Positions 5,244 through 51,723 of a stretch of 64,000 nucleotides of DNA are shown here, piece by piece. Position 1 is the stretch's first letter. Every line of letters starts with the position of its first letter. The notes beneath the pieces are model-generated. The model was not told the origin of the DNA and did not search any database. It saw only the letters and a program-made list of their open reading frames with translations. The stretch covers positions 575,300 to 639,299 of the forward strand of contig NW_015177038.1 of assembly GCF_001447785.1 (NCBI RefSeq), in the 5' to 3' direction. The position numbers were made by a program, and so were the translations under genes. The stretch is from Gekko japonicus (Eukaryota).

Positions 5244-5331
5244 CAAGAGACATCAGTGTCTCGTAGCTCTCCTGCATGACATCTCGATACAAGGCCCTCT
5301 GACGTGGGTCCAGATACACCCACGGCTCCAT
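5244..5331 (-). CDS. gene A: coding part of KRAB-A-type exon (exon 5367-5244), MEPWVYLDPRQRALYRDVMQESYETLMSL
   Basis: C-terminal half of KRAB-A; acceptor CCTCCTAG, phase-1 donor GTAAGG; ATG in TCCGCCATGG context; in-frame TGA upstream within the exon. Confidence 0.8.
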
Positions 5332-5550
5332 GGCGGAACGGAGGTCTTCTCAGAAGCCCACCAGCACCTAGGAGGCAGAAAAGGAATCACACTCAATACA
5401 TAGAACATCAAAACAGCAAATTATGCATGAACAGCTCACACAACTCATAGCTAAGAGGTGGTGCCCTATTAGGGGCCACAAAGACTACATGGGATGGAGA
5501 CTGGCTGTGAAACTCCTATTGAAAAATTACAGACTACTATAAGAACCCTG

Positions 5551-5758
5551 GCCCTGACCCGGATAGCCCAGGCAACCCCAATTTCACAGATCTCAGAAGC
5601 TAAGCAGGGGTTCGCCCTGGTCATTATTTGGATGGGAGACAACCAAGGAATACCTGGGTCGCTACACAGTGGCAGGCAATGGCAAACAACCTCTTTTCGT
5701 CTTTTGCCTTGAAAGCCCTACGAGGTCACCATGTCAGCTGCAACTTGACAGCAAAAAA
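5551..5758 (+). mobile_element. 5S rRNA-derived SINE; further copies at ~6150-6342, 9175-9315(-), 16412-16612, 16641-16822, 26912-27085, 32625-32820(-), 44055-44115, 56150-56315(-), 63175-63362
   Basis: GATCTCAGAAGCTAAGCAGGG...TTGGATGGGAGAC matches the 5S internal control region; non-5S tail GGCAATGGCAAAC...GCCTTGAAA...ACTTGACAGCA. Confidence 0.8.
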
Positions 5759-7149
5759 GGATAAGAATCCTGAGAAACCCAGGTTTCCATCCAAAAATAA
5801 CGCCCCCCACAACTTTCTAGACCTCATGGTTAAAAGATGAACATGAACATCCAGTGATGAACCCCCAATTCCCACCTCCCATATTCTTCCCCCCCCCACA
5901 CACTATGCACAAAGAAATTCTGTTCTATATGATATCCAAAACTCTTCCTCCAAATGAACCACCAGTCAAATTCTTCATGAATCCATACAGTTTGTTCCAA
6001 CGGTATGAACAGAAATGCACAGACAGCAAAGGTTATGACCTGCCTTAATATCTATCGAGAGCTAAAGAAACAGATTTTCTTCCCCGATCATATCAGAATA
6101 TTGCTAACAAACAGCAAATTAAATGGACAAGTAGAGAGTTGACAGACCAGCCTATCTGAGCTTCTCAGAGCTTGGAAGCAAAGCAGGATTGGGCACAGTT
6201 AGTACTTGGATGGGAGACCGCCACAAAAGACCTGGGTTGCTATGCAGAAGAAGGCAATGGCAACCCACCTCTGCTCATCTCTTGCCTTGAAAACCCCATG
6301 CTTCTAGGATCACCATGAGTTGATTGCAGCCTGAAGGCATACAATCATTGTATTACAGAATGTGATTCAAGCCCTCTGGCAGGGATTTAGAAAAACCATT
6401 TTGCAATGTACCAGAAGTTTCAATAGGTTCCCTGTTCTCATAGGGGTGGTTCAACACACAATAGACACAAGGGCATGCTTAAGGCTGTGTCTTCTAACTG
6501 GTTCATACAATTACCAAATAGTTAAGAGGTGCCTGGGTATTTGCAAAACAAGTACTCAAGGCATTACTAGAAAAGTGTGAAAATGGGACATTGTTTACAT
6601 TTGAACAGCTGAACTACAGGCAACCGTGGAAGTTCTGCCTCAAAATTTCAAGAGGCCACTCTTTTTGAAGAGACAGGCAAAGCCCAAATTCAGATCAACA
6701 CACAACACAGAGGGAGAAAGCCTCTTCCTATTGCACTGTCTAATCCAAAATGGCCACGCAAAGTTCAATTTGCCTCTTGGGGCAAACACAGATGCCACAA
6801 AACACCCATAGGTTCCCCCAAACATGGCACATAGGAGCTTCACAGAGGCTCTTGGAAAATGGGTTGCTCACACACACACATCCTGCAACAAATTGGGGGG
6901 GGGGGGTTAAGCAGCATCCACCTATTATGTAACAAAAGATGCTTGGGGGCTCCAGATGTAAAACACCCATTGTCCCGTATGCTTTGATACATGGCTTTCT
7001 ATAGCTAATTTCATCACAGCATTTGAACTGTATTGGGCTGTGTCCTCTACATTACATTTTTGATACATTTGTCTACGATTGATTTGGTTTTTGTTGAGCA
7101 CAGCTCATTTTCTTTGATACTAACAGTAGCAGATACAATTTTAAGAAAA

Positions 7150-7260
7150 ATCCTTTACTCAGCTTCTCCAGCAATGGTAGATCAAGAAACACCCTAAACT
7201 CTTCACGGAATCAACAAGGGATAGATTCATCCCCATCCAAAGTGGGCGGCACAATCCCTT
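7150..7260 (-). mobile_element. old L2 LINE ORF2 fragment (another L2 remnant at ~42640-43080)
   Basis: Degenerate translation resembles PTLDG...LVDSVKSLGVFLD, typical of L2 ORF2. Confidence 0.55.
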
Positions 7261-7576
7261 CTAGAATGTCAGCCTTACCAACACCAGCATCACCACCACC
7301 CTGAGTTCACTTTCCCCTTTACTAAAAGTGCCCAACACTCCAGCAGAGAGCAAAGCAAACTAAAAGTGCAACAGAATGACGTCAAACGAAACTCCCCCCA
7401 CTCCAATTTTCTGAGCACACGGAAACTAGGCCTGGCTGATGCTCAAAAGAAATGATGCAGACAACAAAAATGCCTCTTCATAAATGCTGAGGGCACCTTC
7501 TCAAATATCCTCACGCTTTTGAAACAAATTTTAACCCGCAGAGCACTAGGAATCACGGGTTAAAAGACTCTAGTAG

Positions 7577-9041
7577 TTGGACTTCCGGTTTTGTCGCTTC
7601 AACGATGGCCGCGTCTTCTCGGAGCTCCGAGAGATGTGTGCTGTGAATTAGTGGCCGGGGGGGGGGCTGCGATGGTCCGCATCCCCCCCTGGAGCTCCGC
7701 GAGTGGGCTCCTAGCCATGGGGCTTATGGAGAGTGGCCTCTTCGCCAGCACGTTGCTGGGGAATTGAGGCGCTCTTCTGCCCCGACAGTCCGGCTGCTAT
7801 GCGTCCGAATGGAACTAGAGCTGCTGATCGGGACAAGCGTTGGAGATCGAGCGTTTAAAATGTAATCTGAGCAAGGTCTTATGACCAACAACAAACAGTG
7901 AGTTGAGTAAAAGCGAAATACCAGCAATTTAAAAAGCCAGCCCCCCCCCCCGGAACGGCGAGAAAAGCGAGCAGGGGAGGGGGCCCTCCCCCCCGCATAA
8001 ACTAAAAAACAATTTATCAAGGGGGGCGCGGAGGTGGGAGATGGAGCTATGAGCGGCAAACGACTAGAGCAGGGAACATTTTCAGAATAAAAGCGGCTAC
8101 AAACCTTTGAGACTTTGGCATGTTTTATCGGTGAATGTAAACAATCCCCCAAGATGGCAAGAAGATGTGCGGAGGGAGGCGGGGCCCAAGCTTCTTCAGG
8201 AAGAAGAACGGGTAGGTCAGATGACCAACCATAGATTCTTCCCCAACCAAATCGGGTGACATCTGCTGGCCGAATGGAAGCGGTTTCTAAAGGGACAATT
8301 TCTTTTGCAACGGAGAGGCGTGGTGCCATGGATCAGGGCAAATGCGGAACTGTATGAAAAGCTTGAAACTTGTCGAAGCTTTAGCGGGATGGACTGGTGA
8401 ATAGACTAGCAAGCAGGCTGAAAAGCGGATAAATGGAGTGGAGGACTGATAGCGGTTTTAAAGTCTGCAAGCTAATGGAGTGGAAACAAGCGCATGTCCG
8501 ATGGAATAAATAAGTGCATGGAATTAATAAGCATACGTCCGCATGTCCGATGAAATAAAGAGAGACTCTTTGATCCAAGGCAAATGAGGAGGCGTGGACT
8601 ATTCCTGGAGAGGCAGTACGCAGTAGACGGCCAGTACAGAAGATGATGAGACAACATGGAAAGAAGAGGATAGAGAGGCGTGACTGTTCGGGCTGAGGGA
8701 ACTGTGGGCTCATAAATGCTGGTTCTTGGGGGAAGGAGGGCTGTTGCCATTGCCTTTAAAGGGTTTTGTTTTATGTTTGATAACACGGGAATTGTTCTCT
8801 GTCTAGTCTTAATAAGCGAGTTATGTTAACTGAGATGATGATTAGGTGAACTCCTCATCCTGGAATGCAACTGCTAAAGAGTAACAATATTTTCTATAAT
8901 ATTTTGCAAGTAGATTTTGCAAGTAGATTTTCTTTTCTGGTTTCCATAGTTTGTAGTGTTCCCTTCCTTTTTTCTTGGTAGTTTTGTCGTTTATTTAGAA
9001 ATGCAAATTTAAAAAAATCCCCTTCGGGGGGCTTAAAAAAA
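7577..9041 (+). mobile_element. non-autonomous L1-mobilised retroposon, ~1.46 kb
   Basis: 15-bp TSD AAAAGACTCTAGTAG (7562-7576 and 9042-9056), TT/AAAA site, A tail, CpG-rich 5' end starting GGACTTCCGG...GATGGCCGC, no long ORF. Confidence 0.85.
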
Positions 9042-11309: not shown

Positions 11310-11600
11310 TTCCGCTGTTGAACAGCTCATTGTATTAGAAAGTTCCTCCTAATATTTTGCCAAAATCTAAATTCTGTGTAATGTCTACCAGTTAGTCTGG
11401 AGCGAAAGAAAATGGGTCTTTAACTTCTTCTATGCAGCTGCCCTTCGGGCACTTCATCAGGTTTCCCTTTGGTCTTAACCTTCTCTTCAGGCTAAACATA
11501 CCCTGTTCCTTCAGCGCGTGCTCAGAAGGCTTGCTGTCCAGATCCCTTACCATGCCAATTACCCCACTCCACTTGCACTCTAGTTTGCTAACATCCATCT
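11310..11600 (-). mobile_element. CR1 LINE ORF2 3' fragment
   Basis: Degenerate LKEQGMFSLKRRLR...KGSCIEE..DPFSFAP. Confidence 0.75.
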
Positions 11601-12899: not shown

Positions 12900-13480
12900 T
12901 TTAACAAAACGGGGTGGGGGCTTCCTTCTCCTCCCCCCCTTCCTTGTTTTCGCCCCCTCCCTCTGGGCAAGGCCTCTGCCCCTCCCACCGCAAAGAACAC
13001 CCTACTGGAGACTTAATCTCCCATTTACCCAGAGAGGTCCCCCTCCCCCGCGAGCAAGGGGGTTTATTTCAGCCAGCCGCTCCACACCTTCCGTCCCATT
13101 CACTGCAACACAAAAAGCGGGAGGGGGGAGATCCAGGCCAGTGGGTGCCCCAGCCCTCCAGGCCTAGCTCCTGCCGCCCCACCCTCTACCCCGCAGCCTC
13201 GCCGTTGATCACCTGCAAGCAATCGGTCCGGTCCGGGGCTTCCGCAAGTTTTCTTCCCGGGGGTCTTCGCTATTGCGGGGAGCAGCAGCCGCCACTTAAG
13301 ATTAATCCGGATGTGCAGCGGCGGCTGACTCAGGAAACTCCGCCTAGCTGATGGGGGCCGCCGAGCGGCGACTGGGAAAGAAGTAACCTTCTCGGCTTTC
13401 GCAGGAAGAGGAGCCCTCTAGCGGGCATGGCCTCAGTCAGGCGACCTTATGAAGGCTGCCTTTGCGCGCCGAACCATGGA
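12900..13480 (-). promoter_or_regulatory. CpG-island promoter / first exon of gene A
   Basis: High CpG and GC content; candidate minus-strand donor CAG|GTGATC near 13212. Confidence 0.65.
13409..13427 (-). promoter_or_regulatory. CTCF-like motif
   Basis: Minus strand reads TGCCCGCTAGAGGGCTCCT. Confidence 0.5.
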
Positions 13481-14010
13481 AAGGGAGTGGATCCCTCTCG
13501 CCTTTAACCCATGAAATTCAGCGCTGGGGGGATTTTAAAAAGAAATCTGAAAAAGTGACGGACACCGCTTCTGAATGGCTGTGGATCTGAAGCGCTCAAC
13601 CGAGACAGTTTTTCCCTAAATGTAATTCCTTTGACAGCCATTCGAATTCTCAGGGCTTAACTAACTGATACCGTTTCCCTATGCAAAAGAATCCCCCGGA
13701 CGTTCCAGTTCTCGGCCTGTTTCAAACGAACAAGCTAGATCGAGGCGGTTTTATGCATAAGTCTTTACTCACCTTCCAGCGAGCGGGCCTTACTTCTTCC
13801 CAAAATGTAGAGTAAGCCCGCTTAATTACAGAGTCAGCAGCGTCACTGAACTCGGGCTTACTTAGGAGTAAACAAAATGACGCTGGACGGCTGCAGTGTG
13901 CATTTGCTCTCAGAGTGAGTCTCCATGCATTCATGTCATTTAAAACAGTGCACTATCTAAATCCAAGTAAAGATGCTTGGAAGCTATAAAGGCACCAGCA
14001 GTGTTAAAGT

Positions 14011-17611: not shown

Positions 17612-18438
17612 GTTGGCGAAATGGGATAAAATGAACTTGTCATTGATGGGAAGAATATCAGTTATAAAAATGAATGTCCTACCACGTTTGATGTTCCTGT
17701 TTCAAACAATACCAATACTTAGCAAGACTGATTTGCTACTTAAGTGGCAACAAGAAATTATCAAAGTTTGTTTGGGCAGGCAAGAAACCGAGAATTAAGA
17801 TGAAAATACTTTGTGACGCCAATGAAAGAGGAGGATGGCAACTACCAAATCTTAGACTATATTATGAAGCGGTCTGTCTAACCTGGATGGAACAGTGGAT
17901 GAAACTAGAGAATGATAAGTTATTGGGGTTAGAAGGCCATGATTGTAGATTTGGTTGGCATGCATACTTATGGTATGATAAGACAAAAATGGATAGCTTT
18001 TTTAAGCTTCATGTGGTAAGAAAAGCATTGTTTTTGGTATGGATGAGATACAAAAAAGATTTTCGTGATGTAAGACCATTGTGGATTGTACCAGTAGAAG
18101 TGTTAACATCTTACTCAAGACATAGAGACAAGGATTGGTTGCCGTATAAAGACTTAATTAAAAAAAGAGGGAACAGAATGGGTAATGAAAAAGCAGAATG
18201 AAATTGAATATGAATATGAATGGTTGAAATACATGCAAATTTATGATCTTTTTAGATCAGATAAAAGAAATTATGGTTTTAGAGAGGAAAAAAATGAAAT
18301 GGAAAATGTTTGGGAGAGTGGAGGGGGAAAAAATATCTCTAAAATGTATAAAGTGTTGTTAAAATGGTATACAGAAGAGGAAACGGTGAAAGAGCAAATG
18401 ATAAAATGGGCAATAAATATGAATAAGGAAGTCTTTAT
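17612..18438 (+). mobile_element. L1 LINE ORF2 C-terminal region, 5'-truncated, two frameshifts, runs into gap
   Basis: LSLMGRISVIKMNVLPRLMFLFQTIP and ERGGWQLPNLRLYYEA motifs. Confidence 0.92.
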
Positions 18439-18765
18439 NNNNNNNNNNNNNNNNNNNNNNNNNNNNNNNNNNNNNNNNNNNNNNNNNNNNNNNNNNNNNN
18501 NNNNNNNNNNNNNNNNNNNNNNNNNNNNNNNNNNNNNNNNNNNNNNNNNNNNNNNNNNNNNNNNNNNNNNNNNNNNNNNNNNNNNNNNNNNNNNNNNNNN
18601 NNNNNNNNNNNNNNNNNNNNNNNNNNNNNNNNNNNNNNNNNNNNNNNNNNNNNNNNNNNNNNNNNNNNNNNNNNNNNNNNNNNNNNNNNNNNNNNNNNNN
18701 NNNNNNNNNNNNNNNNNNNNNNNNNNNNNNNNNNNNNNNNNNNNNNNNNNNNNNNNNNNNNNNNN
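18439..18765. other. assembly gap (327 N)
   Basis: N run. Confidence 1.
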
Positions 18766-19091: not shown

Positions 19092-19721
19092 GTCCAACAC
19101 TGAGCCACTCACACATGGAAACACAAACACAAGTGACTTTCCCAACCTCAGAAGTTGAAACCAAGCATCCTGCATATGCCCAGCTTAATCTTGCTACTCA
19201 TTACACCCCAGGCCAGCCCACCCCTGGCTCCCCAAAACATATTTAAACTGGCACTCCACACCCCAACCTTTGTACAACTCTTCTTGGGTGCCCATAAGAG
19301 TGTATCCTCGGACTCTGAGCCTTTGACACAAACTGCTGGTCGGCTATGTCCTCCTCCTGCCACGTGGATTCTGCTCACTTCAGGATCAGGTAAATATCAC
19401 CCTAATGTCCAACACTGAGCCACTCACACATGGAAACACAAACACAAGTGACTTTCCCAACCTCAGAAGTTGAAACCAAGCATCCTGCATATGCCCAGCT
19501 TAATCTTGCTACTCATTACACCCCAGGCCAGCCCACCCCTGGCTCCCCAAAACATATTTAAACTGGCACTCCACGCCCCAACCTTTGTACAACTCTTCTT
19601 GGGTGCCCATAAGAGTGTATCCTCGGACTCTGAGCCTTTGACACAAACTGCTGGTCGGCTATGTCCTCCTCCTGCCACGTGGATTCTGCTCACTTCAGGA
19701 TCAGGTAAATATCACCCTAAT
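19092..19721. repeat. 315-bp tandem duplication (2 copies)
   Basis: 19092-19406 vs 19407-19721; one substitution seen. Confidence 0.95.
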
Positions 19722-20058
19722 TTAAAACCAACCCCCTTCTTGTCACTATCGATCACCTCTCTGTTTCTTAGCTCTGTGTGTGTTGATCTGTTGTTATTAT
19801 TTTTATGTGAGTGAGTAGTGTGAACTTTGCATGTATTCACAATAAAACTCCATCCAATCAACAGTCTCTTCCTTCCACTGGTATCCCTCGCAATTTTACC
19901 CTCGTATGAATAGAGTATTAAAGAACCCTTGTACACATGTGTGCTGCCCTGCACCCAAGGCAATAGAAGCTTATAAACTCATGGCTCCTCGGTGACGATG
20001 ATGGGCAGTGGATTCAAAACAGACACGAGGGCTTCTTCAGTCAAAGAGTGATTAACGT

Positions 20059-21411: not shown

Positions 21412-23879
21412 AGGAGTGTTTTTACCTAACAATAAGGAGTAGCTTGCCTCCTGATCCTATTTAGCTGAGTTCTCCCTGGATGGCTTCAAATGGTACAAGC
21501 TGGGAGAGTGAACAGAAAGTATAGGAATCCCGTGCTTCCCAGTTCTTCTGCAGCACTCTCAGATCTTACATTTATTTATGTATTTACATATCAATAGGCC
21601 ACTTTTTCTCCTCTGTTGGGACCCAAAGCAGCCTACAACATTGTTCTCACATTCCTCAGTTCTTACCCTCACAACAACAATCCTAGGCTGAGAGAGTTGA
21701 CTGGCCAAGATCACCCAGCAATCCTGTATTAAAGGGGAAAGACATTTTTTCTTCCTCTAGTCTAGGCTGTTTATTTGTTGGCTTCTTTTCTGTCCCACTT
21801 TTCTCCCTAGTGGGTTCAAAAATGGCTGTTGGCAACCCTACGTGTATGCCACAAATTCATCTCTCATTGAGAAAAGAACAGGCTCACCAACAACCTAGAG
21901 AAAAAAATATATCTTGCCCCTTTAATAGAGGCTTCATACATGGGAAAGGCAGCTGAAGCTTTTCAAGGCATAGAGGTGACTTTCACCTGATAAATAACAT
22001 GCCTTGAAGCCTTTGTTAAAGGGACAGGACATTTTTTTCTCCAAGTGGTTGGCAGCCCTAAAAAAGTTCCCTGGCCTAAATCTATTGCCCATCAACACAA
22101 TTGTAAGTCGTAGTATTATGGGCGAGGGAGAAAAAAATTATTCTCTACCCACTTTCTCCACCTCATGCATAATCTTACACATCATTATCTAATTACCCTT
22201 TTTTTTCCTCCCCTCTAATGCAAAAGCCTCAAAGTCTTTTCTCAAAGGGAAGCTGCTCCAACCCTTTAACTACAGAAACATAGAGCTGGAAGGGAGTTCA
22301 AGGTTCATCTAGTCTAACCCCCTGCACAATACAGGAAATTCATAGCTACGCCCCCCAGTGACCCAGCTTGTTCTATGCCCAAGGGAAGGCAAAAAAACCC
22401 TCCAGGATCCCAGGGCCAATCTGGCCTGAAGAAAATGGCTTCCTGACCCCAAAGTGGCAATCGGCATTACCCTGGGCAGGTCAGAAAGGGACACAAGAAC
22501 TGAGCATTAGCTCGTCCTTTCCTGCCCTCTGTCTCACTCTCTGCCTCAATTCATAGTGAGTCAACATGCTGGGTGCTTTTCTTAATCTTTAAAAAAATGA
22601 ATCTCAGATGGGATTTCAACCCACAACTCCCTATGGGTACCAAAACACCCAGCAAAGGGGAAATCATGGCCTGAAGTATGGCAGCTAAGAGCACTCAGCC
22701 ATCCTGTCACTTGAATAACTCCCTCATCTCCCCAGTCCCTTGATCATTTTAGTTGCCCTGGTCTGTACCTTTTCTAGCTGTACAATATCTTTCTTTTTAA
22801 AAAAAAAAAAAAAGATGGCCAAAACGTGTCTTCAGTTCTGGAGTAGCAGGAATAAACAGAGTGCCTTTGAGCACTTGTACAATGCCTTTCCTTCATGCTA
22901 ATTAATTACAGTGCAACAGGCCACTGCTGGGATTAAGGGGTGGGACTCTATGTCAGTGGGTAGCCTAAAGATAGGTTTTGAACGTTGACATTCCTCTTTT
23001 TACAAAATGAACTTTTAGGAATGGAGGTTCTGAATGGTATTTAAAATCCTGGGGAAAGTGCTGGAAAGCAAAGGAACAAAAAATTCCAGCAATGTTATGA
23101 AGAAAATGTGAGGATTGCAACACAGCTGATCCTGTAAGAGGTCTGTATACATTAATTTCTAACAAAAGAGATGCTGGTGCCCAGTGCTGCATTTAAACCT
23201 CACTCTCTTGCCTTCTGTTCCCAAAATCCCGTATTGTTTATTTAGAGGCTAATTTGTTTAGTAGGTCAAGAAATGCATTCTATATATCTCCAGGGACTGC
23301 CTTCTTCTTTTTGAAGCCACATTTTCCCCTATAGAAAGTACTTCCAAGGCAGGAATTAATGTGCCACTTGCAAGGCAATTGCCGTGTGAGATGCTTCATT
23401 TGTGTGCATGTATCCATGTGGTACATGGAATGGGATAACTCACAGCCAATTGCATCTTCCTACTGGAACATGTGCCAGTGGGGTGGGACTGTATTTTTCT
23501 TGTATAGAAGTGTTTTCCACATAGGAAAAGGTCATGCCATCATGTGCCCTGGCTCAAAGTTAAACTTAGAAAGTGGCATTGTATTAATTGGAGACTGACC
23601 CCCACTGTAATACCGTATATCTCCATATGTTACCAGCATCTATTGTCAGATATTAAAAAAATTAAAATTCCAAGATGGTAGTCCCCTTTGTCAACAACAA
23701 CAACAATAATGTCTTATTGCAGCTAAATACCTAAAAATGCACCAGCTTTTGTGAGCCCACTTCAGGTACATGACAAGTGTTACGCCCATGCATCTGGCAA
23801 AATAGGCTCATGACAACTTACACGGCAGTGAATTTGTTAGTCGTTACAGTGCCACCAAGGTTTTATTATGGGGGGGGAT

Positions 23880-24700
23880 AGAGTAGCGCTGTGCGACCAT
23901 TCCCACGTCACAAAATACACGTGTGTGGAAAGAACTGCGTGTATGAAAATGAAAAACGCCTCTCTTTCCTCCCCCATCTCCCCGCTAGTTAGTTAGCGAC
24001 GCCTAAAATGTACTGGGGATTGAGGCACTACCGTGCTGGGTTCTTTGGAGGGTTTCTTGTTTACCTCTCCCACTGTCCACGTTTGTCTTCACGGCGGCGA
24101 GTGTTGTAGCGGGGTATGCTTTTCTGCTGGCACAGGAAGGGGCTGGAGGAGCAGAGAGAAAGATGAAAAGCTGGATGCAGCGGTGGGGAGGGGGCAGGAA
24201 GGAGGGATCAGTCAGAGCCGACAGATCGGAAATCGCGAGGCTCCAGACTTTGGAGTTGTTGGCAAGAGAAGCCTCTTTGTGATCTTGCAGCTTGGACTGG
24301 GCAGCCGGTGGTACGTCTGCTTCCACGGCCGGATCTCTGCCACAGGTGTGGGGGGAGAAGGGAATTTCTCATGTCTGACCGAAGTGGAGACTGTGTGTCG
24401 CCCGCTCAGTGGGCACAGCCCGGTAGCCCCGGAGGCTCCCAGTGATCAGTTCCCCTCTGAGCAGCGAGGGTCTCCGGGTAACCGTGGCGCTGGGTAGAGA
24501 AGCGTCTTTGCCCCCCAAGGGCCATTGTTTTTACCCCCTCTTCCTACTTTTCCGTTGTTTGAGGATGCTAGATCAGCTGACGAGACCGAGGCTTTTTTGC
24601 CGCACCACTTAGGAGACGTTAACTGTACGGAGCAAACCGCATTTCTAGCGAGGGCAACTTCATGTTATGGTATGAAAACCCTGCCGTGTACGCAGTAACT
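23880..24700 (+). promoter_or_regulatory. CpG-island promoter / non-coding first exon of gene B
   Basis: CpG-dense; candidate donor CGG|GTAACC at 24477. Confidence 0.65.
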
Positions 24701-26285
24701 GTATCTGAAGATGACACACACGTGGGGCTGTGTGTACATGACACAGAATGGAAACGCCTGCATGGGCTGTCATCACAGATGCTAATCTCAGCGCAGTTTT
24801 TTACACTGATTCCTAAATGAAAATATAAGACAAATTGTGAAATGTGATGTTTTGTTTTGTTGTCTGAATCGTTTCCCTTTCTTTCATAGATGGTGGCTGC
24901 CCTGTTGGTTTCAAAGACAGGAAGTCTATGAAATAGGTAGGACAATACCTATGTTTTTGGACTAGTATAGGTGTGAAATATGCCAACCTTCTCTGTCCAG
25001 CAAAGTATTCTGTGAAGAAGAAGAAAACCCCAGGGTTTTGTTTTTTGTTTTTTAATTGCATGGCATAACCTGTTAGATAGGGACAGGAAAGGCCAATCCT
25101 CTTTTGCTGGTAAATCTTCTTGCCCTAAAACTGTCTTAGGGACAGTCCCTTAACAGTCTTTCATTTTCTGGTATTTGGACACTGAGACTATCAGAAGTGT
25201 TGGGGTTTTTTTTTGTTTTTATACCCCACTTTTCTCTATCTTTTATACCCCACTTTTCTCTATCAAAGCAGCTTAAAATCGCCTTCCCTTCCTCTCCCCA
25301 CAACAGGCACCTTGTGAGGTAGGTGGGGCTGAGAGAGTTCTGAGAAAACTATGACTGGCCCAAGGTCACCCAGCAAGCTTCATGTGGAGGAGAAGAGGGG
25401 AATCAAACATACTTCTCCAGATTAGAGTCGGCCACTCTTAACCGCTACACCACATTCGCTCTTTGCACTACACCAGCCTATGTATGTCTCATGGTGCCTT
25501 ATACTGAATCATATCATTAGTCCATTTATTGTCTAGTCTGATTGGCAGAGGCCCTCCAGAGTCTCACACAAAGAAAAGTCTCTCCCATTTAACTGAAGGA
25601 GTCAGGGATTAAACCCAGGAGTTTCTGCATGCAAAGCAGATGCTCTTCCACTAAACCACAAATGCAAGAAGAACTCATTCATTCATTTCCCCACAATTAT
25701 ACCCTGCCCTTCCCCAAAGGAGCTTAAACTGATTAGGTATTCTCATTTATTTTCCTTATATCAAACCTGTGAAAAAGGTTAGGCTGAGAGAGAATGTCTG
25801 GTCCAAAATTACCCATCGAGTTTAATGGTATAGGCAAAGATTTGAACCCAGGTCTCTCCAGTCCAGGTCCAGCACTCTAACCATTATACCTGTCAATAAT
25901 TTGATGGTTTATAAGATAATGGTGTGTTTTAAACCAGCACAGTGCAGTGGTTAGAATGTCAGAGATTTGGGAGAACCAGGTTCAAATTCCCATTCTGCCA
26001 TGGAAGACCACTGGGTGACTTCAGGCTAGCTACTGTCTCATCTTAGCCTACCTCACAGGGTTGTTGTTGTGGGGATTAAAACAGAGAAGGGGAGAATGGG
26101 TCCCCATTGCAGAAAAAAGTGGAGTATAAATAATTTTTGAAATGTGTTCAGAAAGGAAACCTGCCCAGCATTTCTAGTAATAGACTGGAGTCCATTTGAA
26201 ACCTGTTTCCCTGTTGTTTTTCTTTCTGAAATAGGCTGCCTTGTATCAGTACGCCAAGCCCTTGCATCCTGCTGAGAACGAAGGA

Positions 26286-26309
26286 ATGGCTACGGCAGAG
26301 CTGGCTCAG
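26286..26309 (+). CDS. gene B first coding micro-exon (MATAELAQ; exon 26235-26309)
   Basis: Pyrimidine tract + TAG acceptor, GGAATGG start context, CAG|GTAGGT phase-0 donor; typical pre-KRAB micro-exon. Confidence 0.65.
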
Positions 26310-27778: not shown

Positions 27779-27893
27779 GAGCTGGATGCATCTGAGGAGG
27801 ACGACGAAGAAAGGGAGAAAATGTCGAGTTTGCCGGATCCTGTGCAAGCATCCCTCATAAGCAATAGGGAAGAGGACTGTGCAGCATCCCCAG
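27779..27893 (+). CDS. gene B exon, eroded KRAB-A (ELDASEEDD...LPDPVQASL...AASPG)
   Basis: TGTTTCAG|GAGCTG acceptor, phase 0 to 1, donor GTAAAG, in frame with neighbouring exons. Confidence 0.7.
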
Positions 27894-28022: not shown

Positions 28023-28515
28023 ACATAGAATCATAGAATGTTAGAGTTGGAAGGTACCTAGCTCAGGAAGGATGGCTCCAGAGCAAACTAATGTATGCAG
28101 GAGCCATATCACCTGCTCACAACTTTAATGCCAGGAGCTCACAAAGTAGAATTTTTGCTCACAAGACCCCGCAGCTTAGAGGGAACATAGCCTACAACAT
28201 ACCCGAAAGATGGTCGTCCAGCCTTCGCTTGAAAACGTCCAGCAAAGGAGCATCCACCACTTCCCGAGGCAGACTGTTCCACTCCTCAACCACTCTTACA
28301 GTTAGGAAGTTTCTCCTGATATTTAGCCGGTAACGACTCCCTTGTAATTTCCACCCATTAGAACTAGTCTTGCAATCCGGAGCAAGAGAGAAGAGATCTG
28401 TTCCATCTTCTACATGACAGCCCTTCAAATACTTGAAGACTGCAATCATGTCCCCTCTAAGCCTTCTCTTTCCCAGGCTAAACATACCCAACTCTTTCAG
28501 CCTTTCCTCATAACA
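28023..28515 (-). mobile_element. CR1 3' end interrupted by a partial hAT MITE (28059-28190)
   Basis: ORF 28192-28491 GMFSLGKRRLRGDMIAVFKYLKG...; ATTCTATG-type tail at 28023-28040. Confidence 0.92.
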
Positions 28516-29337: not shown

Positions 29338-29517
29338 GATCACCAAGATCTACAGGGATGCCCCAACCAGAAGGGGAAGAAGCTCCCTGGGGTCTCTATC
29401 TCCACTGCACAGAGGAAGCGGAGAGCCCGAGAACCAGCAATGGTCCAGATGAGGACAACAGCTGGGACTCCCAGGAAGTCTTTGTGAGCTCCCCTTGCTC
29501 AGTCTCCTCTTACCCAG
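29338..29517 (+). CDS. gene B exon, KRAB-B-like / linker
   Basis: CACAG acceptor, CCAG|GTCAGG donor, phase 1-1; PQPEGEEAPW resembles KRAB-B LEQGEEPW. Confidence 0.7.
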
Positions 29518-30422: not shown

Positions 30423-31852
30423 GGAGTGAGAACGAAGAGGAGAATCCAGGCGGTGTGGAGTCTCAGGTGCCTTTGTCAGGAGGCTGCGGAAGGAGTGTAT
30501 TTTGGGAATTTAAGAAAGGGGAAGCCCATGAGAAGAAGGGGAAAAGTTATCTTGGAGAAAGATGGACTAGCCCAACTTCCTACATAGAAATCCTTGGAGG
30601 TGCTCAAGACTCTGCGGCCCACCAGGGACCCAGTCCCTATAACAAGGAGCACGGGAATATCCTTACGGCAAGGCCCTCCAACCTCATTACCCGGCAGAGA
30701 CTTCATAGGAGCAAGAAGCTCCACCGGTGTGCCGAATGCGGGAGAGGCTTTGGTGTCTTTTCAAACCTCATCCGCCACCAGAGGACCCACATTGGGGGAA
30801 AACCCCACAAATGTCCCGATTGCGGGAAAGGGTTCGGACACAGCTCGGCCCTCGTCACTCACCGGCGTATCCACACGGGGGAAAAGCCGTACGCGTGCAA
30901 CGAGTGTGGGAAAAGCTTCAACGTGGTGTCCAACCTCCTGCGGCACCAGAGGAGTCACACGGGAGAGAAGCCTTACCAATGCCCTGACTGTGGGCGCTGC
31001 TGCAGCCAAAGGTCTCACCTGATCACCCACCGGCGCCTCCACACCGGGGAGAGGCCTTACCAGTGCCTGGAGTGCAGGAAAAGCTTCAACGTTAGTTCTG
31101 ACCTGATCAAGCATCGGAGAATCCACACGGGCGAGAGGCCCTACGAGTGCCGTTACTGCGGGAAGCGCTTCAGCGGCAGCTCCAACCTCATCACGCACCA
31201 GAGGCTCCACACTGGCGAGAAGCCCTACGTCTGCCCCGAGTGCGGCAAAAGCTTCACAATCAGCTCCAAGCTGATCACCCACCAGCGAATCCACGCGGCA
31301 GAGAAGCCGTTCGATTGCACAGACTGTGGGAAAAGTCGCACTGAAAGGCCCTGCCTCGCCAGGAACCAGCCGAGCCCCTACCGCCGGGAGAAACGCTTCA
31401 AATGCATTGACTGCGGGAAGAGCTTTACCACCAGCTCCTACCTCATCACCCACCAGCGGATCCACACGGGGGAGACCCCCTACATCTGTGGGGACTGTGG
31501 GAAAAGCTTCACAGTTATCTCCAACCTGGCCAGGCACCAGAGGATCCACACGGGCGAGAAGCCCTACAAGTGCCCAGACTGTGGCAGGAGCTACAACCAG
31601 CGGGCCCACCTGACGACACACCTGAGAGTCCACACAGGGGAGAAACCTTACGTCTGCTCCGACTGTGGGAAGAGTTTCAATGTCAACTCGTCCCTCACCA
31701 AGCACCGGAGAATCCACACTGGCGAGAAGCCCTACATGTGTCCCGACTGTGGGAAAACTTTCAGCCAGAGCTCCAACGTCATCACTCATCAGAAGCTCCA
31801 CCACAGTGGTAGCCTCCTTGGCGGCCCCATCAGGGTCCTTCAGATCCAATAG
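30423..31852 (+). CDS. gene B terminal exon: C2H2 zinc-finger array (12 intact + 1 degenerate finger)
   Basis: TTTCTTTTCAG acceptor in phase 1; CxxC...HxxxH repeats with TGEKPY linkers; TAG stop; spliced product 582 aa. Confidence 0.95.
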
Positions 31853-37997: not shown

Positions 37998-38089
37998 TCG
38001 CAAGATGTTGCATGTCTTATTATGGAAGCGGCATCAAGCATGACACCCTCTGCTACCCCACTGAGCTCAAAACCATTGCTTGCCCTCCT

Positions 38090-40419: not shown

Positions 40420-41266
40420 GTTGCTTGCCCTGAATTTTTTAATTTCATCTTCGATGTCTTTATTGATTGCATTTTTCTCCCGTGCTTCCTCCACAGAACG
40501 CAAGGTATAGATCATATCATTTTTCACAACACCCCTGCATGGTAGGCCAGGCCCAGAGATGAGATTTTGCTCCAGGCCACCCAGTAAGCTTCCCAGTGAA
40601 GGTGAATCCTGGTCTCTGGAAGTCATCACAGCACAGTGGCCATTTCCCTGAGTGCCGTCTAGTTCAAGCATTCTGTCAAACAACAGACTTTTCACACAGT
40701 TCATCATACTACACTTAATAACATAAGAAGAGCCCTGCTGGATCAGACCACTGGTCCATCTTGTCCAGCATCCTGTCTCACACAGTGGCCAACCCATTGC
40801 CTTGGAGGGCCGAAAAGCAAGGCACAGAGGCCGAGACCTTCCCCTCATGTTGTCTGCTTTATACACAATCTGAGATTGATGCGGAAAATTTTCACAGCTC
40901 ATCATGCAGAATCTGGATTTTTACAAAAACTCTACCAGCTGGGTAGAACAGAATTTCCAACGGTTTTGAACTTCAATGCTGGAACAGATACATGTTAAGT
41001 GAATATTGTCCCCTTTTTTTGTGGTGGCTAAAGCTAATCACAGAACTTCCCATCAGAGCGCAATACGTTTCACGTGAGCTGATAGTGCATTATTTCTGCA
41101 CCTTTCCTAAGGATCCGATCACCACTGCGACAGTGGCTATATTGAGACTGTCAGGGAATGCGCTTCCACCGAGATCTTGGTTGGCAGCTGTTTTGGCATG
41201 GTCTTTGCACTTAGTAAAAGCTGAATTTCATTTGCAGTTCTGGGAGTGTGGAGAAGAATTTAAAAA

Positions 41267-42046
41267 ATGGAGGACCAGGACCCAACAGGATCCAAAGCAA
41301 AAGAGAAACCGGAGGCAGATCGCCCCATCGTCCATGTTAGCACAGCTGGAGACGTTCCAACAGAAACGGGTCCCCAGGACACTGAACGGGCACCAGATGA
41401 GGTGGCTTCAATAGAGACCAAACAGACAACCCCCGGGGAGGCTCCTCGAAAAGCTCAACAGGTACTGGAGGAGGTGGTCCTGCCAGAGACTGATCAGGCT
41501 CTGGAGGAAAGGACCCAGCAGCAGGACTTCCAGAAGGCAGCCAAATCTCGGAGGAAACCTCTGGTGCCTACCCGGTGGGATAACACAAAAACATTTCAGA
41601 CCTCCTTCCAGAGAACAGCTGACGCCGTCCACAGGGCTGAAGAAGACAGGGTGACTCGAACTCCGACAGATCTCAGCGGAGAAGCTACAGAAGCCTACAG
41701 CAGCTTGGGCCCCTCCCGGCAAACAAAGGATGAGCTCCTGGATGGAGAGGCCATCCGTCTGGAGCTACGGCGCCAGCAGTTCAGGCAGTTCTGCTACCTG
41801 GAGGCTGAGGGGCCCCGGGAGGTTTGCAGCCAGCTCCGGGACCTTTGCTACCGATGGCTGCAGCCAGAGAGACACACCAAAGAGCAGATCTTGGAGTTCC
41901 TGATCTTAGAGCAGTTCTTGGCCATTCTGCCGCAGGAAATGCAGCTCTGGGTCAGGAAATGGGACCCGGAGACCTGTGCCCAGGCCGTGACCCTGGTGGA
42001 GGTTTTTGCCTTGAAACTGCAAGAGAAGGAGAGATGGGACCAGCAG
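41267..42046 (+). CDS. gene C first coding exon with SCAN domain
   Basis: [55 protein letters not shown]; acceptor at 41237; CAG|GTGAGT phase-0 donor. Confidence 0.95.
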
Positions 42047-42362: not shown

Positions 42363-42474
42363 GTGCCAGGCCCACTGGAAAAGGTGGCAGCGAATTTCTC
42401 CAAAGCAAACCCCTTGAAAATGCAGCTGTACATGGTGGCCATGCAAGAGGGTGAAAGGATAGCCAGTTTGCTGG
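42363..42474 (+). CDS. gene C exon, degenerate KRAB-A-like (VPGPLEKVAANFS...QLYMVAMQE...ASLLG)
   Basis: TTTTTTAATTCAG acceptor, GTAAGG donor, phase 0 to 1, bridges the SCAN and finger exons in frame. Confidence 0.85.
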
Positions 42475-44021: not shown

Positions 44022-44324
44022 GTTATAATAATTAATAGCAGGAGGGAAGACAGCATAGTATAGCTCAATCTCATCAGATCTAGGAAGCTAAGCAGGGTTG
44101 GTATTTGGAAGGGAGAATACCTTGGCTCACAACCTGTAGTCTTGAGTGAGCTGGTCCAGTTGGACTCCAGGCCAGCCCTTGCATTGTACTGAATTTTAAT
44201 ATTGTTGCTGGTTATTTGCTTGTTTCATTATATTTGTGGTGTTTTCTTGTAAGATGCTTTGGGCCCTGCTAGGGAGAAAAGTAGAATGTAAATACTTAAA
44301 TCAGTGAATCCATTCTTCCAGCAG

Positions 44325-45313
44325 GTGATGTCCACATGAGTGAGAACAAAGAAGCGAATCTTCAGCCAGAAGGACCAGAGCAAGTGGATCCCAACCAGGT
44401 GTCGCTGGAAAAGGGCAAAGCAAAAGTCTTCCTGTTTCCCAAGATGGAAGGAGTGCCTGAAAGTCAGCAAGCAGTGAAAGACTGTGAGATTACTGGAATG
44501 GAAGAGACGTCTGGAAATCAGTGGCAACAGGGAAACCACCCAGAACAGGCAGTGGAAAAAAACTATCTTTCTGAAAGGGAGAAAAGTTTAAGTGAAAGCA
44601 CTTTGCAAGAGGGACTTGACCTAGATAGGAGAAAAAGGACAGGAATGGAGAGTGGGAAAAGCTCCAATCAGAGTGCTGACCCTCTTAAAAACTTGAATGT
44701 CCAGACTGGGAAAAGGCCATACAAGTGCTCCTATTGTGGGAAAATCTTCAACCATGCCTCAGCCCACTTGGTCCATGAGAGGATCCACACGGGAGAGAAA
44801 CCATATAACTGCCTGGAGTGTGGGCAGAACTTCAGTCGCAGATCACACCTTACCAGACACCACAGAATCCACACAGGGGAGAAACCGCATACCTGCTCCA
44901 AGTGCGGGAAGAACTTCAGTCGGAGATCACACCTTATTGAGCATGAGAGGACCCATACAGGAGAGAAACCATTTGCATGCTCCACCTGTGGGAAAAGTTT
45001 CAATTACCGGTCCCTCCTCAAAGAACACTCAAGGATCCACACAGGAGAGAAGCCATACAAATGCTCAGACTGTGGAAAGAGCTTCAATCGAAGAGAGAGC
45101 TTTATCATCCATGAGCGGACTCACACAGGGGAGAAGCCATATGAGTGCCTAGACTGTGGGAAAAGATTCAGTCAGCGATCAAACATTACTACCCATGAGA
45201 AAACTCACATGGGAGAGGGAAAATATAAATGTGCAGAGTGCGGGAAAAGCTTCTGCAATTCCACTAGCCTCCTTAGACACCAGAAAATCCATGCAGAGGA
45301 AAAGCCATGTTAA
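44325..45313 (+). CDS. gene C terminal exon: 7 C2H2 zinc fingers
   Basis: TTCTTCCAGCAG acceptor in phase 1; seven fingers; TAA stop; spliced product 626 aa. Confidence 0.95.
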
Positions 45314-46470: not shown

Positions 46471-46612
46471 CCGAATGGTCATCGTAAGTAATCAGTGGAA
46501 GGTGACGGATAACATAGGGAGAGTGCAGGGAGAATAGAAACCCGAATGGTCATCGTAAGTAATCAGTGGATGGTGATGGATAACATAGGGAGTGTGCAGG
46601 GAGAATAGAAAC
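46471..46612. repeat. 71-bp tandem duplication
   Basis: CCGAATGGTCATCGTAAG...GGAGAATAGAAAC twice, three substitutions. Confidence 0.95.
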
Positions 46613-49018
46613 ACATGGCATCCTGCCTTTTTCTCCTTCCCTTTCACTTAAATTTCCTCTCATATTCTAGTATGTTCTGGCCAAACAAATTCTCCAAACA
46701 AAAATATCTTTGTACTGAACTGGATTCCCTGGAAAGTGCTAGTTTTCTATGATGCCAGAAGCAGCATGGGAGAACGTTCTGTAGTCCTCTGAATGGGAGC
46801 TATTCTTGAAAGGTAAATTGCATGTTTAGGAAGTGAAGTTAATTGCTTTGCATTGTTGCAAGTAGTATTTTATCTGCCAACATAGCTCTGCCTGGGTCAT
46901 AATAGTGAGACAAAATGCATCCATGTATTTAAGAGCAATCTGTCACATGTTTATCCCCCCCTTCCTCCAAGGAGTTCTGGGTAGCATACATGATTCACAT
47001 TTCCTACATGACATTGATTCAGATTCATTGAGCTCCATGGCCAAGTGGAGATCAGAGTTCAGGTCTTCCCAGTCACTGCCTCTTAAGACAGATTTCTTAG
47101 ACAAAAGTGTATGTATGTGCCTAGGGCTGGGGAAAAAGTTTCATATACCAGAATCAAATTTTCAAGAGCCAGCAGAAGCTTGTTGGACACTGGCTGGGTG
47201 GTGGAGCATTTGCTTGGAGTACAGAAGGCCCAAAGTTCAGTCCCCTGGCATTGCCAATTAAAAAGATCCGGTAGTAGATGCTGTGAAAAAGACCTTGGCT
47301 TAAGACCCCGAAGAGCTGCTGCCAATCTGAATAGACAATATTGATCTTGATTCAGTATAAGGCAGCTTCATGTATTCAAATACGCTCGTGGTGACTCAGT
47401 TCCACTCTCCAATCCACTATCCCTGGGTAGTGTGTTTTTAAAAATAACATTCCTCTTAATCATCAGTATGAGACTTCTAGGTTGCACTCTTTTATACAGT
47501 TACTTGGGTGGAGGCCTTGTGCTACTCACGGGGACTTAGACCTGGTTCATGTGTGCAAGAGAATGAGAGGGCAGCAGAGATCAGAGCAAAGGGAAAGATT
47601 CTGCCCCCTGTCTTTGCTTGTTTTGCCAGTTTCCTGTTTGCCAGGGAGTTGTCAGCATAGGGAAACATCCCCAAATGTGATATTTCACCTGCGGTGTGAA
47701 GTGGTACTGTCCATTCTACCAACTCGACATTCTACTACTTGAGAGTACACAGAAAGCTGCCTTATACGGAGTCAGCCCATTGGTCCAGCAAAGTCAGTCT
47801 TGCCTCCCCTGACTAGCAGCATTTCCCTGTGAATCTCAGGTGGAGGTCTTTCCCATCCCCTACTGCCTGAGCCTTTTAAGAAGCATGTTGGGGAATGAGC
47901 CCTGGAACTGTCTCCATATAAAACAGGTGCTCTGCCACTGAATCACACTCCAACCTCACCCTTTTGCATGTGTGAACCAGGCCTTACTCCTGACATCACA
48001 TGCATAGAATTGGGCTACATGATAGAATGCCAGACATGAGTGGTTTCTACAGGCTTCTACTTGCTGTCAATTGCAGTTCACTATAAGAAATCTGTAGGAG
48101 ATCTGGGGGCAAAAGGGGGCCTTCGCTGTCCACTCAGATTTGTACTCTCTGTGACCGCCCTTCATTTAAAAGAACAGCTTCCAGCACTGTAAACACCATC
48201 TGTGGCTGTCACATCTGGGTATGAAGGTAGAATGCAGTGGTACAACACTAAGGAAGGGAGAGTGAAAGGCACCATTCCAGATTGGAAGTTTGAATGCTCT
48301 AAAAAAACACCTCTCTGCAAAGAGAAAAACAACAGGCTGGGCAAATCGTTGGAATATTACTTTTTGCTCTGATGTGCTAGTTTCCCATTCTGCAGAGAGG
48401 TTTTTGAGTGTGTTCTTAAGGCTGCTTCCACCCAGAGGTTTTTCTCTGCCTTCACTTCTTATCTGGAGCCCTTGGAGGGGAGGGAGCATCGGGGTGACCT
48501 CATGCTCCAATTGTCCTTTCTAGATTTTAACCACCCTCTGTATGCTTTTTCCCAAAGCTGCTTTAAATCAATCTGTTTGGAATGGCTTCAAGTACATCAG
48601 CACATCATGTGGAACAAATAGTACAGGGTTTCCTCCTACAAAGGACCCATCCACATCGGCTCTTGTTTTCCTCCCATGGGCCTCTTGCAGATGCCATTTT
48701 CCCAGTATTATTTTCCTGCTGTTCATTCTTACAAGCCTTGCTTTTCTCTACATTAAGGCCCCCAAATAGTTTACAATTTCCTTCTCCTTTCCTGCATTTT
48801 ATCCTCACAACAGCAGGCCCTTGAGGTCGGTTAGACTGAGAGAATGAGTGTTCGGCCCAAGGTCACCCAGCCAGGTTCTAGAGCATGAGTGGAGATTCGA
48901 ACCTGCATCTCCCACACAGAGTTCCCAAAAGCGGGGTGGGGGGTGGGGGGCGGATAATGTAAAAATTAAAATCACTGCAACATCCTCATCCTTTCCTGGC
49001 AGCCAAGAAGTCCTTCTT

Positions 49019-49034
49019 CCAGCAGAGGGCGCTG
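49019..49034 (+). promoter_or_regulatory. CTCF-like motif
   Basis: CCAGCAGAGGGCGCTG, close match to the CTCF core. Confidence 0.6.
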
Positions 49035-49349
49035 CTTGTTTCTGGCTGCCTAGAGGATTTTGCTTTTCCCGACTACCAGAACGGATGCTCTTCCTGGGTT
49101 GTCCAAAGGCTGCCAACTGGTGCGCTTTCTAACCCAAGCACGAAGTAAGTCCCAAGCACGAAGTAAGGATTATTTCCACACTGTATGTTGGGCGAAAGAT
49201 TCTGAGGAGTGGACCCTAGCGGGAACTGCCCCTCCTTGTATTGAACAAGCCTTTACATACGTAAATAAATGCTTTCAGGAGATATGCCAGAACGAAGGAG
49301 GCATTCACTGACAAAAGTAGACTGGAAAAATTGAGGGTGATGAGACCCA

Positions 49350-49730
49350 TCAGATGCGCGAGAAAAAGAAGCGTTGGTTTCTTTAAACTGAAAGAAAGTG
49401 AGCGGTGAGGCTTTTTCGTGGGAGGGCATTTGGTGCGTGCGGGGAGGCTGACTGATCCATCGGGATGAGANNNNNNNNNNNNNNNNNNNNNNNNNNNNNN
49501 NNNNNNATGTCCCAGTGGAGAAAAAAGGGGGGGGGGGGGGGGTTGGGGAACCCACGGAGTGGCTTCGAGGACGAGGACAGGTCGAGGAACGGCTACTTCC
49601 CATGAATGCAAAAAGGAGCCTCCGCGTCCAGAGGCCATGGGCTCCTGAATACCCGCCGCTAGAGAGGAATGGCGGTCAGAGACCTTAATCTCTTGTTGAG
49701 GGAGGAGGCTTCTCGGGGCAAGCTTGTTGG
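49350..49730 (+). promoter_or_regulatory. CpG-rich promoter / first exon of gene D (contains a 36-N gap at 49471-49506)
   Basis: CpG enrichment upstream of gene D exons. Confidence 0.55.
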
Positions 49731-50085
49731 CCACTAGGGTTGCCAGCCTCCAGGTGGTGGATGGAGATCTCTTGCAAGTTGCAACTAATCTCCAGCCCGC
49801 AATAGAGATCTGTTCACCTGGAGAAAATGGCCGCTTGGGAAGGTGGATTCTTTATACCCCACTGAAGTCCCTCCCCGAACACGCCCTCTCCTGGCCCCAC
49901 CCCCAAAATCTCCTGGTACTTCCCCAAGCTGGAGCTGGCAACCACTGTGGTGGGAAACCGGGTGCTGAACTAGGCAGACCCTCTTGGTCTGATCCAGCCG
50001 GGGCTTTTCGTGGCTGCTGATGGTGATTCGTTTTTCTGTTTCATTAAGGTAGCTTCTTTGGTCGTGAATGCATAGGGTCACCAAT

Positions 50086-50291
50086 CAGTGTTCCCTCTAA
50101 GCTGAGTTAGTGTGAGCTAGATCACAGTTTTTTAGCCTCCAGCTCACACATCTTTGCCTTAGCTCTGGAAGGAGGGCTCCAGAGCAGACTAATTGATGCA
50201 GGAGCCAAATGGCTCGCTCACAACTTTAATGGCAGCAGCTCACAAAGTAGAATTCCTGCTCACAAGACTCCACAGCTTAGAGGGAACATTG
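50086..50291. mobile_element. hAT MITE
   Basis: Same TIRs; near-TSD GTCACCA(A)T. Confidence 0.9.
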
Positions 50292-50502
50292 GTCACCATA
50301 AATCGGTAGTGACTTGACAACACATACATTAGATAAACGGGTAAGTATGAGAAGTCACGGGGGGGGGGGGCCAACTGACAGTATCATTTTCCATCCATAA
50401 AAACTAGTCTTCTTAAATATGCATTGTACCTTTACAAGGATCCATTACAGCACCCCTTCCACTTTCTGACTAGAATATAAAAACTCAAATCTCCATTCCT
50501 AC

Positions 50503-50582
50503 TTGTGTCTGATGAAGGGAGCTTTGACTCTCGAAACTAATATCCTGAACAACTTGTTGGTCTCTAAGATGCTGCTGGACAC
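50503..50582 (+). mobile_element. Penelope-like terminus with degenerate hammerhead core
   Basis: CTGATGA-A-GGGAG..CTCTC-GAAA then TTGTTGGTCTCTAAGATGC. Confidence 0.6.
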
Positions 50583-51695
50583 TAATTTAAATGTCCTTGG
50601 TTCAGGTTTCCCCACAGCACAACCACACTGGGTTTAATTCTTCAGCCATCTTTAATGCCCCTCTGCCATATAAGACTCACTTTTAATTTTTTATTTATCA
50701 TATATGCCTATCTTTTCACCCGTGCCATGTGCACACTGTTGTTTCTTTTTTCTTTTTTATCCATCTTTCTTCTTTTTTAAAAAAAACATAACTCACACCA
50801 GTTCAAAATAAAAGGTAGGCAAGCCAGCATCCTCTCAGTCACAGCCTCTCCAAACCCCTTTACAATGCAGAGGCTACAACATTGGTCCACTGTGCAAGGA
50901 CGTTGTAGGACTACTGCACTGTGCAAAGTGATACAGTTTTATGTACCAATTTGTAAAGTAGTGCAGGGCATTAAAACCAATACCTTTTCTCTGAGAAGGA
51001 ACTACTTCTATGAATGAGTTATTAAACTGTAGAATTCACTGCTGGAGGATGCCAGCAAAACGGGACTAGACAGATTCATGGGTCAATTGATGGCTACAAG
51101 CCATGGTGACTGAAAGGAGCCTCCATATCTAGAGGCAGCAAACTTCTGAATCCCAGTGCTGGGAGAAGATAGCAACAGGGGAGGGCCTCTGCCTCTGCAC
51201 CCTGATGTTTGACCCTCCAGGGCAACTGGTTGGCCACTCTGTGTAATGGGATGCTGGACTAGATGGACCACTGTTAGGCAAATTATTTTTCTGCACAGGA
51301 AGAGAAGGGCTTCACCAAGAAAGCACTTTGTATTGTTCTAGCTGCTGCGGTATTTTAGGGGGGCTGCCTGCCTTTTAAAATTTATTGGTATTTTATTAAT
51401 TAGTGATGGTTTCTGCTTGTTTTCCTTAAATGGGCCTTACTGTGTTTGTGTTTAAAGCCACTGGAGAACTTTCAGCGTGGGCAAAGAACTCTCCCACTAT
51501 TGCTCTCTAGTGTCATAGAAGTGTTTTAAATATGTTTTTTCAACTCCACACACGTGCAGAACAGGTGACACCACACTGATTTTTAGCCTTCCTTTACCAG
51601 GAGCTGGTCACTTTGTGGCAAGTAGCCGTGTTCTTCACTGAGAGAGAGGGATAGTTCTACTGGATCGAGGGCAAAAAGCGGCTAACAAGAACATT

Positions 51696-51723
51696 ATGCA
51701 GGACAAGAATGTGGCCTCTCTCG
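51696..51723 (+). CDS. gene D: coding tail (MQDKNVASL) of a disrupted KRAB-A exon (51601-51723)
   Basis: TTTACCAG acceptor; ELVTLWQVAVFFTE then a frameshift/stop, then LLDRGQKA...MQDKNVASLG; phase-1 GTAAGG donor in frame with 53859. Confidence 0.7.

Follow-up and report, generated by a model that had tools for sequence, protein, structure and literature searches.

Do four neighbouring zinc-finger genes that all lack a canonical KRAB-A exon record one loss or several? The question is raised by a stretch of 64,000 nucleotides of the Gekko japonicus genome (contig NW_015177038.1), hereafter the window. A sequence-only reading had taken four of its exons for broken vestiges of KRAB-A, normally a 127-bp exon, and proposed that the cluster's TRIM28-recruiting TE silencers had decayed together and become domesticated transcription factors. 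Divergence and loss of KRAB in zinc-finger clusters are already known, and TRIM28-free variant KRABs are a known class. In the accessible part of Helleboid et al. (2019; PMC6745500), one of 18 tested human variant KRABs bound KAP1 strongly, and diverged KRAB-A boxes belong to old zinc-finger genes, often with SCAN, the old ones being under purifying selection. What could be consulted of PMC10547255 restates that variant KRABs without TRIM28 binding are old and under purifying selection.

Four candidate KRAB-A exons

What does the window contain? The plus strand carries four C2H2 finger exons (30423–31852, 44322–45313, 53859–55504 and one running off the window end), and there is a single SCAN exon. 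We call the genes A (minus strand, with exon e1), B (e2), C (e3) and D (e4). The coordinates, lengths and splice sites given by the sequence-only reading were accurate. Exon e1 (5244–5367, minus strand) is 124 bp long, and on the plus strand e2 (27779–27893) is 115 bp, e3 (42363–42474) 112 bp and e4 (51601–51723) 123 bp. All have AG acceptors; the donor is GTAAGGAT in e1, e3 and e4 and GTAAAGAT in e2. Splicing and start codons are, throughout, those predicted from these letters. It was also correct that no exon of the four encodes a full canonical 127-bp KRAB-A, as matrix scores, Pfam and exon lengths agree. Nor was a further intact KRAB-A, which would count against that reading, found in a six-frame scan of the window's 2208 stop-to-stop ORFs.

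Are these exons derived from KRAB-A? We aligned them, with frameshifts allowed, to a matrix made from 205 KRAB-A boxes of fetched proteins. Canonical boxes score 94–131 and the 380 candidate AG...GT segments of the window average −59; e1 scores 47.2, e4 18.4, e3 −24.6 and e2 −32.5. Against 60 shuffles, z is 12.0 for e1, 9.2 for e4 and 3.9 for e3, pointing to KRAB-A ancestry above chance, and 2.8 for e2, where such ancestry is marginal. The KRAB-A origin claimed for all four is thus strong for three and weak for e2. By these scores the exons have the features of variant KRABs, namely KRAB-A ancestry with strong divergence from the consensus, e2 marginally so. Scored with PF01352 (gathering cut-off 20.4 bits), as had been proposed for each exon, the e1 product read from an internal ATG passes at 44.5 bits (model positions 14–41 of 42), while e2, e3 and three readings of e4 match no Pfam family at E ≤ 10. 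The human variant KRABs of PMC6745500, as described in its accessible part, resemble our exons in having a diverged KRAB-A in zinc-finger genes and an association with SCAN; they are still recognizable as KRAB, whereas e2, e3 and e4 lie below Pfam detection.

Could such exons still recruit TRIM28? Section 8 of Stoll et al. (2022; PMC9753469), the part consulted, gives 12 KRAB residues needed for silencing; in ZNF93 numbering the canonical TRIM28-binding set is D8, V9, I11, F13, E17, W18, L21, Y29, V32, M33, E35 and N36. Mapped by alignment, the set is incomplete in the e1 product (6/12 kept), in e3 (5/12) and in e4 read through (6/12); a reliable alignment of e2 to these residues was not obtained. 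Exon architecture and apparent ancestry are held in common with canonical KRAB-A/KAP1 repressors such as ZNF93. TRIM28-independent proteins would be plausible products of these exons, since they are KRAB-A-derived and lack many of the TRIM28-contact residues. The MLE motif, offered earlier as a yardstick, was not borne out as one: of 21 sauropsid KRAB-A boxes, 7 have MQE and 6 have MLE, so the two are about equally common. In the part of Liu et al. (2014; PMC3971581) available to us, the L of MLE is missing from the lizard consensus, and KAP1 binding is not to be assumed for lizard KRABs. Atlas searches returned generic zinc-finger and KRAB clusters only.

The half-KRAB of gene A and the post-SCAN exon of gene C

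If e1 carries a stop codon, is it broken? Its TGA, at codon 6, lies upstream of an internal ATG at 5331 in a strong context, TCCGCCATGG; the first 36 nt, TGA included, are probably 5′ UTR. The ATG opens a 29-residue half-KRAB, MEPWVYLDPRQRALYRDVMQESYETLMSL. We searched 1.84 billion representatives with it and found a distinct group within the best 150 matches. The 45 related proteins that we compared were chosen by the group motif; many of them are gene-caller fragments and not independent. Met stands at the e1 start position in 40 of the 45 and is residue 1 in 19, and an FxD/EV motif upstream of the half-KRAB occurs in none of them. The 21 distinct 28-mers of the group are 79–93% identical to e1, a range somewhat inflated by the motif selection; canonical KRAB boxes reach 71% at most, with a median of 50%. 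Names were available for 17 of the 26 representatives looked up, and these come from alligator, turtle, two snakes, an agamid lizard and many birds; all are sauropsid, with no mammal among them. Several are called ‘zinc finger protein CKR1(-like)’. In chicken, cKr1 was originally reported by Benn et al. (1991).

The CKR1 type is recognized by a Met at KRAB-A position 14 followed by an LD..Q.ALYRDVMQESYETLM motif, and e1 has both; aligned to the ZNF93 chain of PDB 7z36, its Met falls at position 15. The closest named proteins are those of Naja and Ophiophagus, at 93%. Gene A resembles the CKR1 and CKR1-like proteins (database names) of birds, crocodilians, turtles and squamates through its Met-started half-KRAB, and its assignment to CKR1 rests on 29 residues, the downstream exons being outside the window. 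We conclude that e1 is conserved and not broken, to judge from its 79–93% identity to the start of CKR1-type proteins, which were found in birds, crocodilians, turtles, snakes and a lizard. Since the named carriers span a crocodilian, a turtle, snakes, a lizard and birds, the half-KRAB appears to be older than the bird–lizard split. That split lies about 280 million years back. The protein identity would imply purifying selection on the variant domain of e1, and the deep conservation of the gene A half-KRAB would be as expected of an old host transcription factor, a view which these comparisons support.

The e1 product lacks D8, V9, I11 and F13, carries E17P and N36S, and keeps W18, L21, Y29, V32, M33 and E35; its TRIM28 binding would be weak or nil. 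It is cut at the N-terminus, unlike the human set of PMC6745500, in the accessible main text of which the word ‘truncated’ does not occur. A literature search that took in main texts and few subscription journals found no description of the CKR1 half-KRAB. Gene A probably has its promoter and first exon in a CpG island at 13000–13750 (CpG o/e 0.69–0.92), on the minus strand. That strand yielded no C2H2 motif anywhere in the window, so the finger array of gene A lies outside the window or is absent. Of the four genes said to have kept their finger arrays, then, B, C and D have near-intact ones within the window and A shows none there.

What of gene C? Its SCAN exon (41238–42046, plus strand) has a predicted start at ATG 41267, scores 129.9 bits with PF02023 and ends in phase 0; e3 follows, open and in frame over 37 codons plus 1 nt, and the finger exon (44322–45313), with seven canonical C2H2 fingers, is entered in phase 1. 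With a SCAN domain upstream of a finger array, gene C has the make-up of a ZSCAN gene. The squamate SCAN-zinc-finger genes of PMC3971581 likewise combine a SCAN exon with a C2H2 array and underwent a lineage-specific expansion in lizards; what was available of that paper does not describe their post-SCAN exon as a degenerate KRAB-A, whereas in gene C this exon is KRAB-A-related.

To place e3, we used a post-SCAN profile built from the ten squamate SCAN proteins without KRAB that our gene B and gene D searches had listed and from one protein with a SCAN remnant, chosen by eye; they come from geckos, snakes, a cordylid, a lacertid, an amphisbaenian and a monitor, and the profile contains no sequence of the window. 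Exon e3 matched it at E = 5.9e-8, the best of 540 sequences, and profile comparison with KRAB-A gave a probability of 92.7%. Leave-one-out recovered 9 of the 11 training proteins at E < 0.01; beyond the training set, the profile picked up one Sceloporus protein as well as many canonical KRAB-A boxes. Because a profile of other squamate proteins matches both e3 and KRAB-A, the degeneration of e3 appears to be old and shared among squamates, the gecko locus adding at most a further in-frame deletion. Of the silencing residues, e3 keeps V9, F13, Y29, M33 and E35. A tandem degenerate KRAB in proteins with both SCAN and an intact KRAB was also considered and is not claimed: a post-SCAN profile of 11 such proteins matched neither KRAB-A (3.5%) nor e3. 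Squamate degenerate post-SCAN KRAB exons, too, went unmentioned in the literature searched, again main texts with few subscription journals.

The probable lesion in gene D and the putative remnant in gene B

The claim that all four exons are broken comes down to e4: e1 is a conserved half-KRAB, e2 and e3 both have an open reading frame that keeps its phase, and e4 appears to be the only truly broken exon of the four. It has a 2-nt frameshift at a GA repeat, a TAG and a 2-codon deletion. Shift and TAG both follow from a single 2-nt excess beside the GAGAGAGAG run and are thus one lesion. Is the lesion real? The GA-repeat site is of a kind prone both to real slippage and to assembly error, and e4 might be degenerate yet coding and in frame, as e2 and e3 are, its frameshift an assembly error or a polymorphism. 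That one event yields both shift and stop would suit this explanation, as would the N gaps in the window, one of them at the 5′ end of gene D. Yet the region from 49300 to 51600, which includes a 36-nt gap, yielded no pre-KRAB exon of the usual kind with an ATG, and e4 in frame would still lack D8, W18, Y29 and N36. We consider an error or polymorphism unlikely, and with these four residues lost e4 would be a variant KRAB even in frame; read through, it has two conservative changes besides its six silencing residues.

The finger exon of gene D (53859–55504, plus strand) encodes 14 canonical C2H2 fingers (14/14). ATG 51696, within e4, and ATG 53933, in this last exon, are each in frame with all 14. 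Among 64 candidates scored, within set length limits, no orthologue of gene D was found, and a search with its linker gave four matches, all of low identity and covering 32–42% of the region. An apparent fifth, e4-like exon (score 88) turned out to be a flank overlap with e4 itself.

Gene B has a probable promoter in the CpG island at 23750–24750 (plus strand) and a pre-KRAB exon at 26235–26309, in which ATG 26286 encodes MATAELAQ, similar to octamers, such as MAAMELAQ, that stand before an intact KRAB-A in fetched proteins; the exon ends in phase 0. (Its similarity to the region 51200–51460 is weak, at z = 2.4, and was set aside.) The finger exon (30423–31852) encodes 12 canonical C2H2 fingers and one degenerate (12/13 canonical) and has no in-frame Met ahead of them, so the gene B protein needs an exon that changes phase 0 to phase 1.

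Is e2, which is barely recognizable, that exon, or is it a chance AG...GT segment, neither KRAB remnant nor perhaps exon? At the protein level its KRAB ancestry is weak: to the lack of any Pfam match are added a rank of sixth among the 380 candidates by the KRAB-A matrix, one unrelated candidate scoring higher, and E values of 6.3 and 62 against two purpose-built profiles. Chance is nonetheless quite improbable. Exon e2 is open over 38 codons plus 1 nt (3n+1) and so supplies the phase change that gene B needs; it has a typical pre-KRAB exon on one side and a KRAB-B-like segment on the other; and its DNA aligns with that of e4 end to end, both splice sites included, at a score of 47 against a maximum of 41 for 173 other donor regions. 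The KRAB-B-like segment (29338–29442) is the best of the 2208 ORFs with a nine-sequence sauropsid-type KRAB-B profile (E = 0.016) and is not matched by a broader 38-sequence profile; its end is uncertain, its donor, GTCCAG, is weak, and it may be skipped.

The gene B linker has its closest relative, at 75% identity, in a protein of Paroedura picta, the one orthologue among 59 candidates scored within set length limits. The two proteins share the first five fingers. As annotated, the P. picta protein is frameshifted in its linker and damaged in its first finger, carries a deletion and ends early, and would argue against domestication of gene B, although it is a single annotated protein to whose lesions assembly error may contribute. 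Orthologues of B and D may have been missed, since only 59 and 64 candidates were scored, within length limits. A homologue search with the whole finger exon of gene B was swamped by generic finger matches (8000 candidates, best identity about 59%), although KRAB and SCAN reference sequences were drawn from it, and exact look-ups of two single-exon readings of B and D showed them to be absent from the sequence collection. The near-canonical finger arrays of both genes would fit current function.

Probable separate histories and their meaning

Did the cluster, then, decay as one? A window without any intact KRAB-A, the near-intact fingers of genes B, C and D, a common ancestry of e2 and e4 at the DNA level and the deep conservation of e1 would all suit the joint decay of TE silencers into domesticated factors, but we regard it as very doubtful: the ages differ, the form of e1 being sauropsid-wide and that of e3 squamate-wide, so that only e2 and e4 may be local; the gene B orthologue is broken in another gecko; and KRAB-less zinc-finger genes are common in lizards. 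Anolis gene models, in Table 1 of PMC3971581 as available to us, comprise 723 ZNF-only (a count inflated by the fragmented assembly), 89 SCAN-only, 122 KRAB and 240 SCAN–KRAB genes. Squamate proteins made up 31 of the 120 matches listed in our gene B homologue search, and PF01352 was absent from 12 of the 31. As for domestication, it finds no support in B, whose sole orthologue found is broken, or in D, which had none among the candidates scored.

We think it probable that this is an ordinary squamate zinc-finger cluster in which canonical KRAB-A was lost at different times and by different routes in the four genes. Gene A would be of the CKR1 type, translation starting inside the KRAB-A exon to give a half-KRAB under long-standing selection, as its conservation indicates; this half-KRAB would probably be a protein-interaction helix with weak or no TRIM28 binding. 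Gene C would be a SCAN-zinc-finger gene with SCAN as its likely effector, its post-SCAN exon an old degenerate KRAB-A common to squamates. In B and C the exon phases are such that the KRAB remnant exon, placed after the exon with the ATG and before that with the fingers, would turn phase 0 into phase 1. Selection may hold the length (3n+1) and open frame of e2 and e3 while their residues drift, and reading-frame constraint would explain their retention with no adaptive role needed for the residues. In gene D, e4 would be mostly 5′ UTR, translation starting at ATG 51696 or 53933. B and D appear to have arisen through lineage-restricted gene birth and death.

The conserved CKR1 half-KRAB looks to be the remaining lead at this locus, the rest being separate histories of known kinds. 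It is possible, though we would not count on it, that sauropsids carry two derivatives of KRAB that have gone largely unnoticed: a CKR1-type half-KRAB with a different partner, and a degenerate post-SCAN KRAB-A invisible to Pfam. If so, the CKR1-type half-KRAB would have lost its N-terminal TRIM28 contacts before the divergence of birds and lizards, and a different binding partner would be probable, since the half-KRAB is still about 85% identical despite that loss. As a natural, strongly conserved truncation, it would divide the TRIM28 interface into two halves, so that the C-terminal helix of KRAB-A could be tested directly on its own. Many squamate ‘SCAN-only’ genes would then be SCAN–variant-KRAB genes. 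Pfam-based counts of reptile KRABs would overlook such degenerate post-SCAN exons, which may bear on the reconstruction of how SCAN and KRAB became joined.

Fingers of gene B and its orthologue

How intact are the fingers of gene B? Both histidines of the eighth finger (31316–31380) have been lost. We also compared gene B with its orthologue from Paroedura picta (XP_077180900.1). In the latter protein the linker is in a different reading frame from that of gene B, the first finger is damaged, approximately one finger has been deleted and the protein ends early. Judged by its sequence, this orthologue appears to be a decaying pseudogene.

Genes C and E

The last exon of gene C, the SCAN gene, has a NAGNAG acceptor (44319–44324), either choice of which maintains the reading frame.

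A fifth zinc-finger gene, E, is represented at the end of the window by a finger exon on the plus strand (63492–64000), with an ATG at 63499 that lies inside the exon, after an acidic linker. The gene E region includes a CpG island at about 59750–60250. A scan of the window detected no KRAB-like exon upstream of gene E, and its atlas search returned generic finger clusters only.

Interspersed and duplicated sequence

A short interspersed element occurs six times, at 28058, 37309, 40288, 43806, 50160 and 60686; its copies are 87–90% alike over the 130–140 bp compared. Four lie in introns of zinc-finger genes, and a further copy is located a short distance upstream of gene C. The intron of gene A contains a CpG-rich stretch (7250–9000) that by eye resembles the 5' end of a plus-strand LINE-1-type element. 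Elsewhere, the intervals 17660–18440 and 19100–19830 hold fragments similar to the 3' end of a LINE reverse transcriptase, next to an N gap (18439–18765), as well as about 315 bp that are duplicated in tandem almost exactly.

A chicken relative of the gene A exon

The Gallus gallus protein BAF62979.1 is a relative of e1, the KRAB-A exon of gene A, and is a chicken representative of the Met-started, CKR1-type half-KRAB group. [quoted passage not shown]
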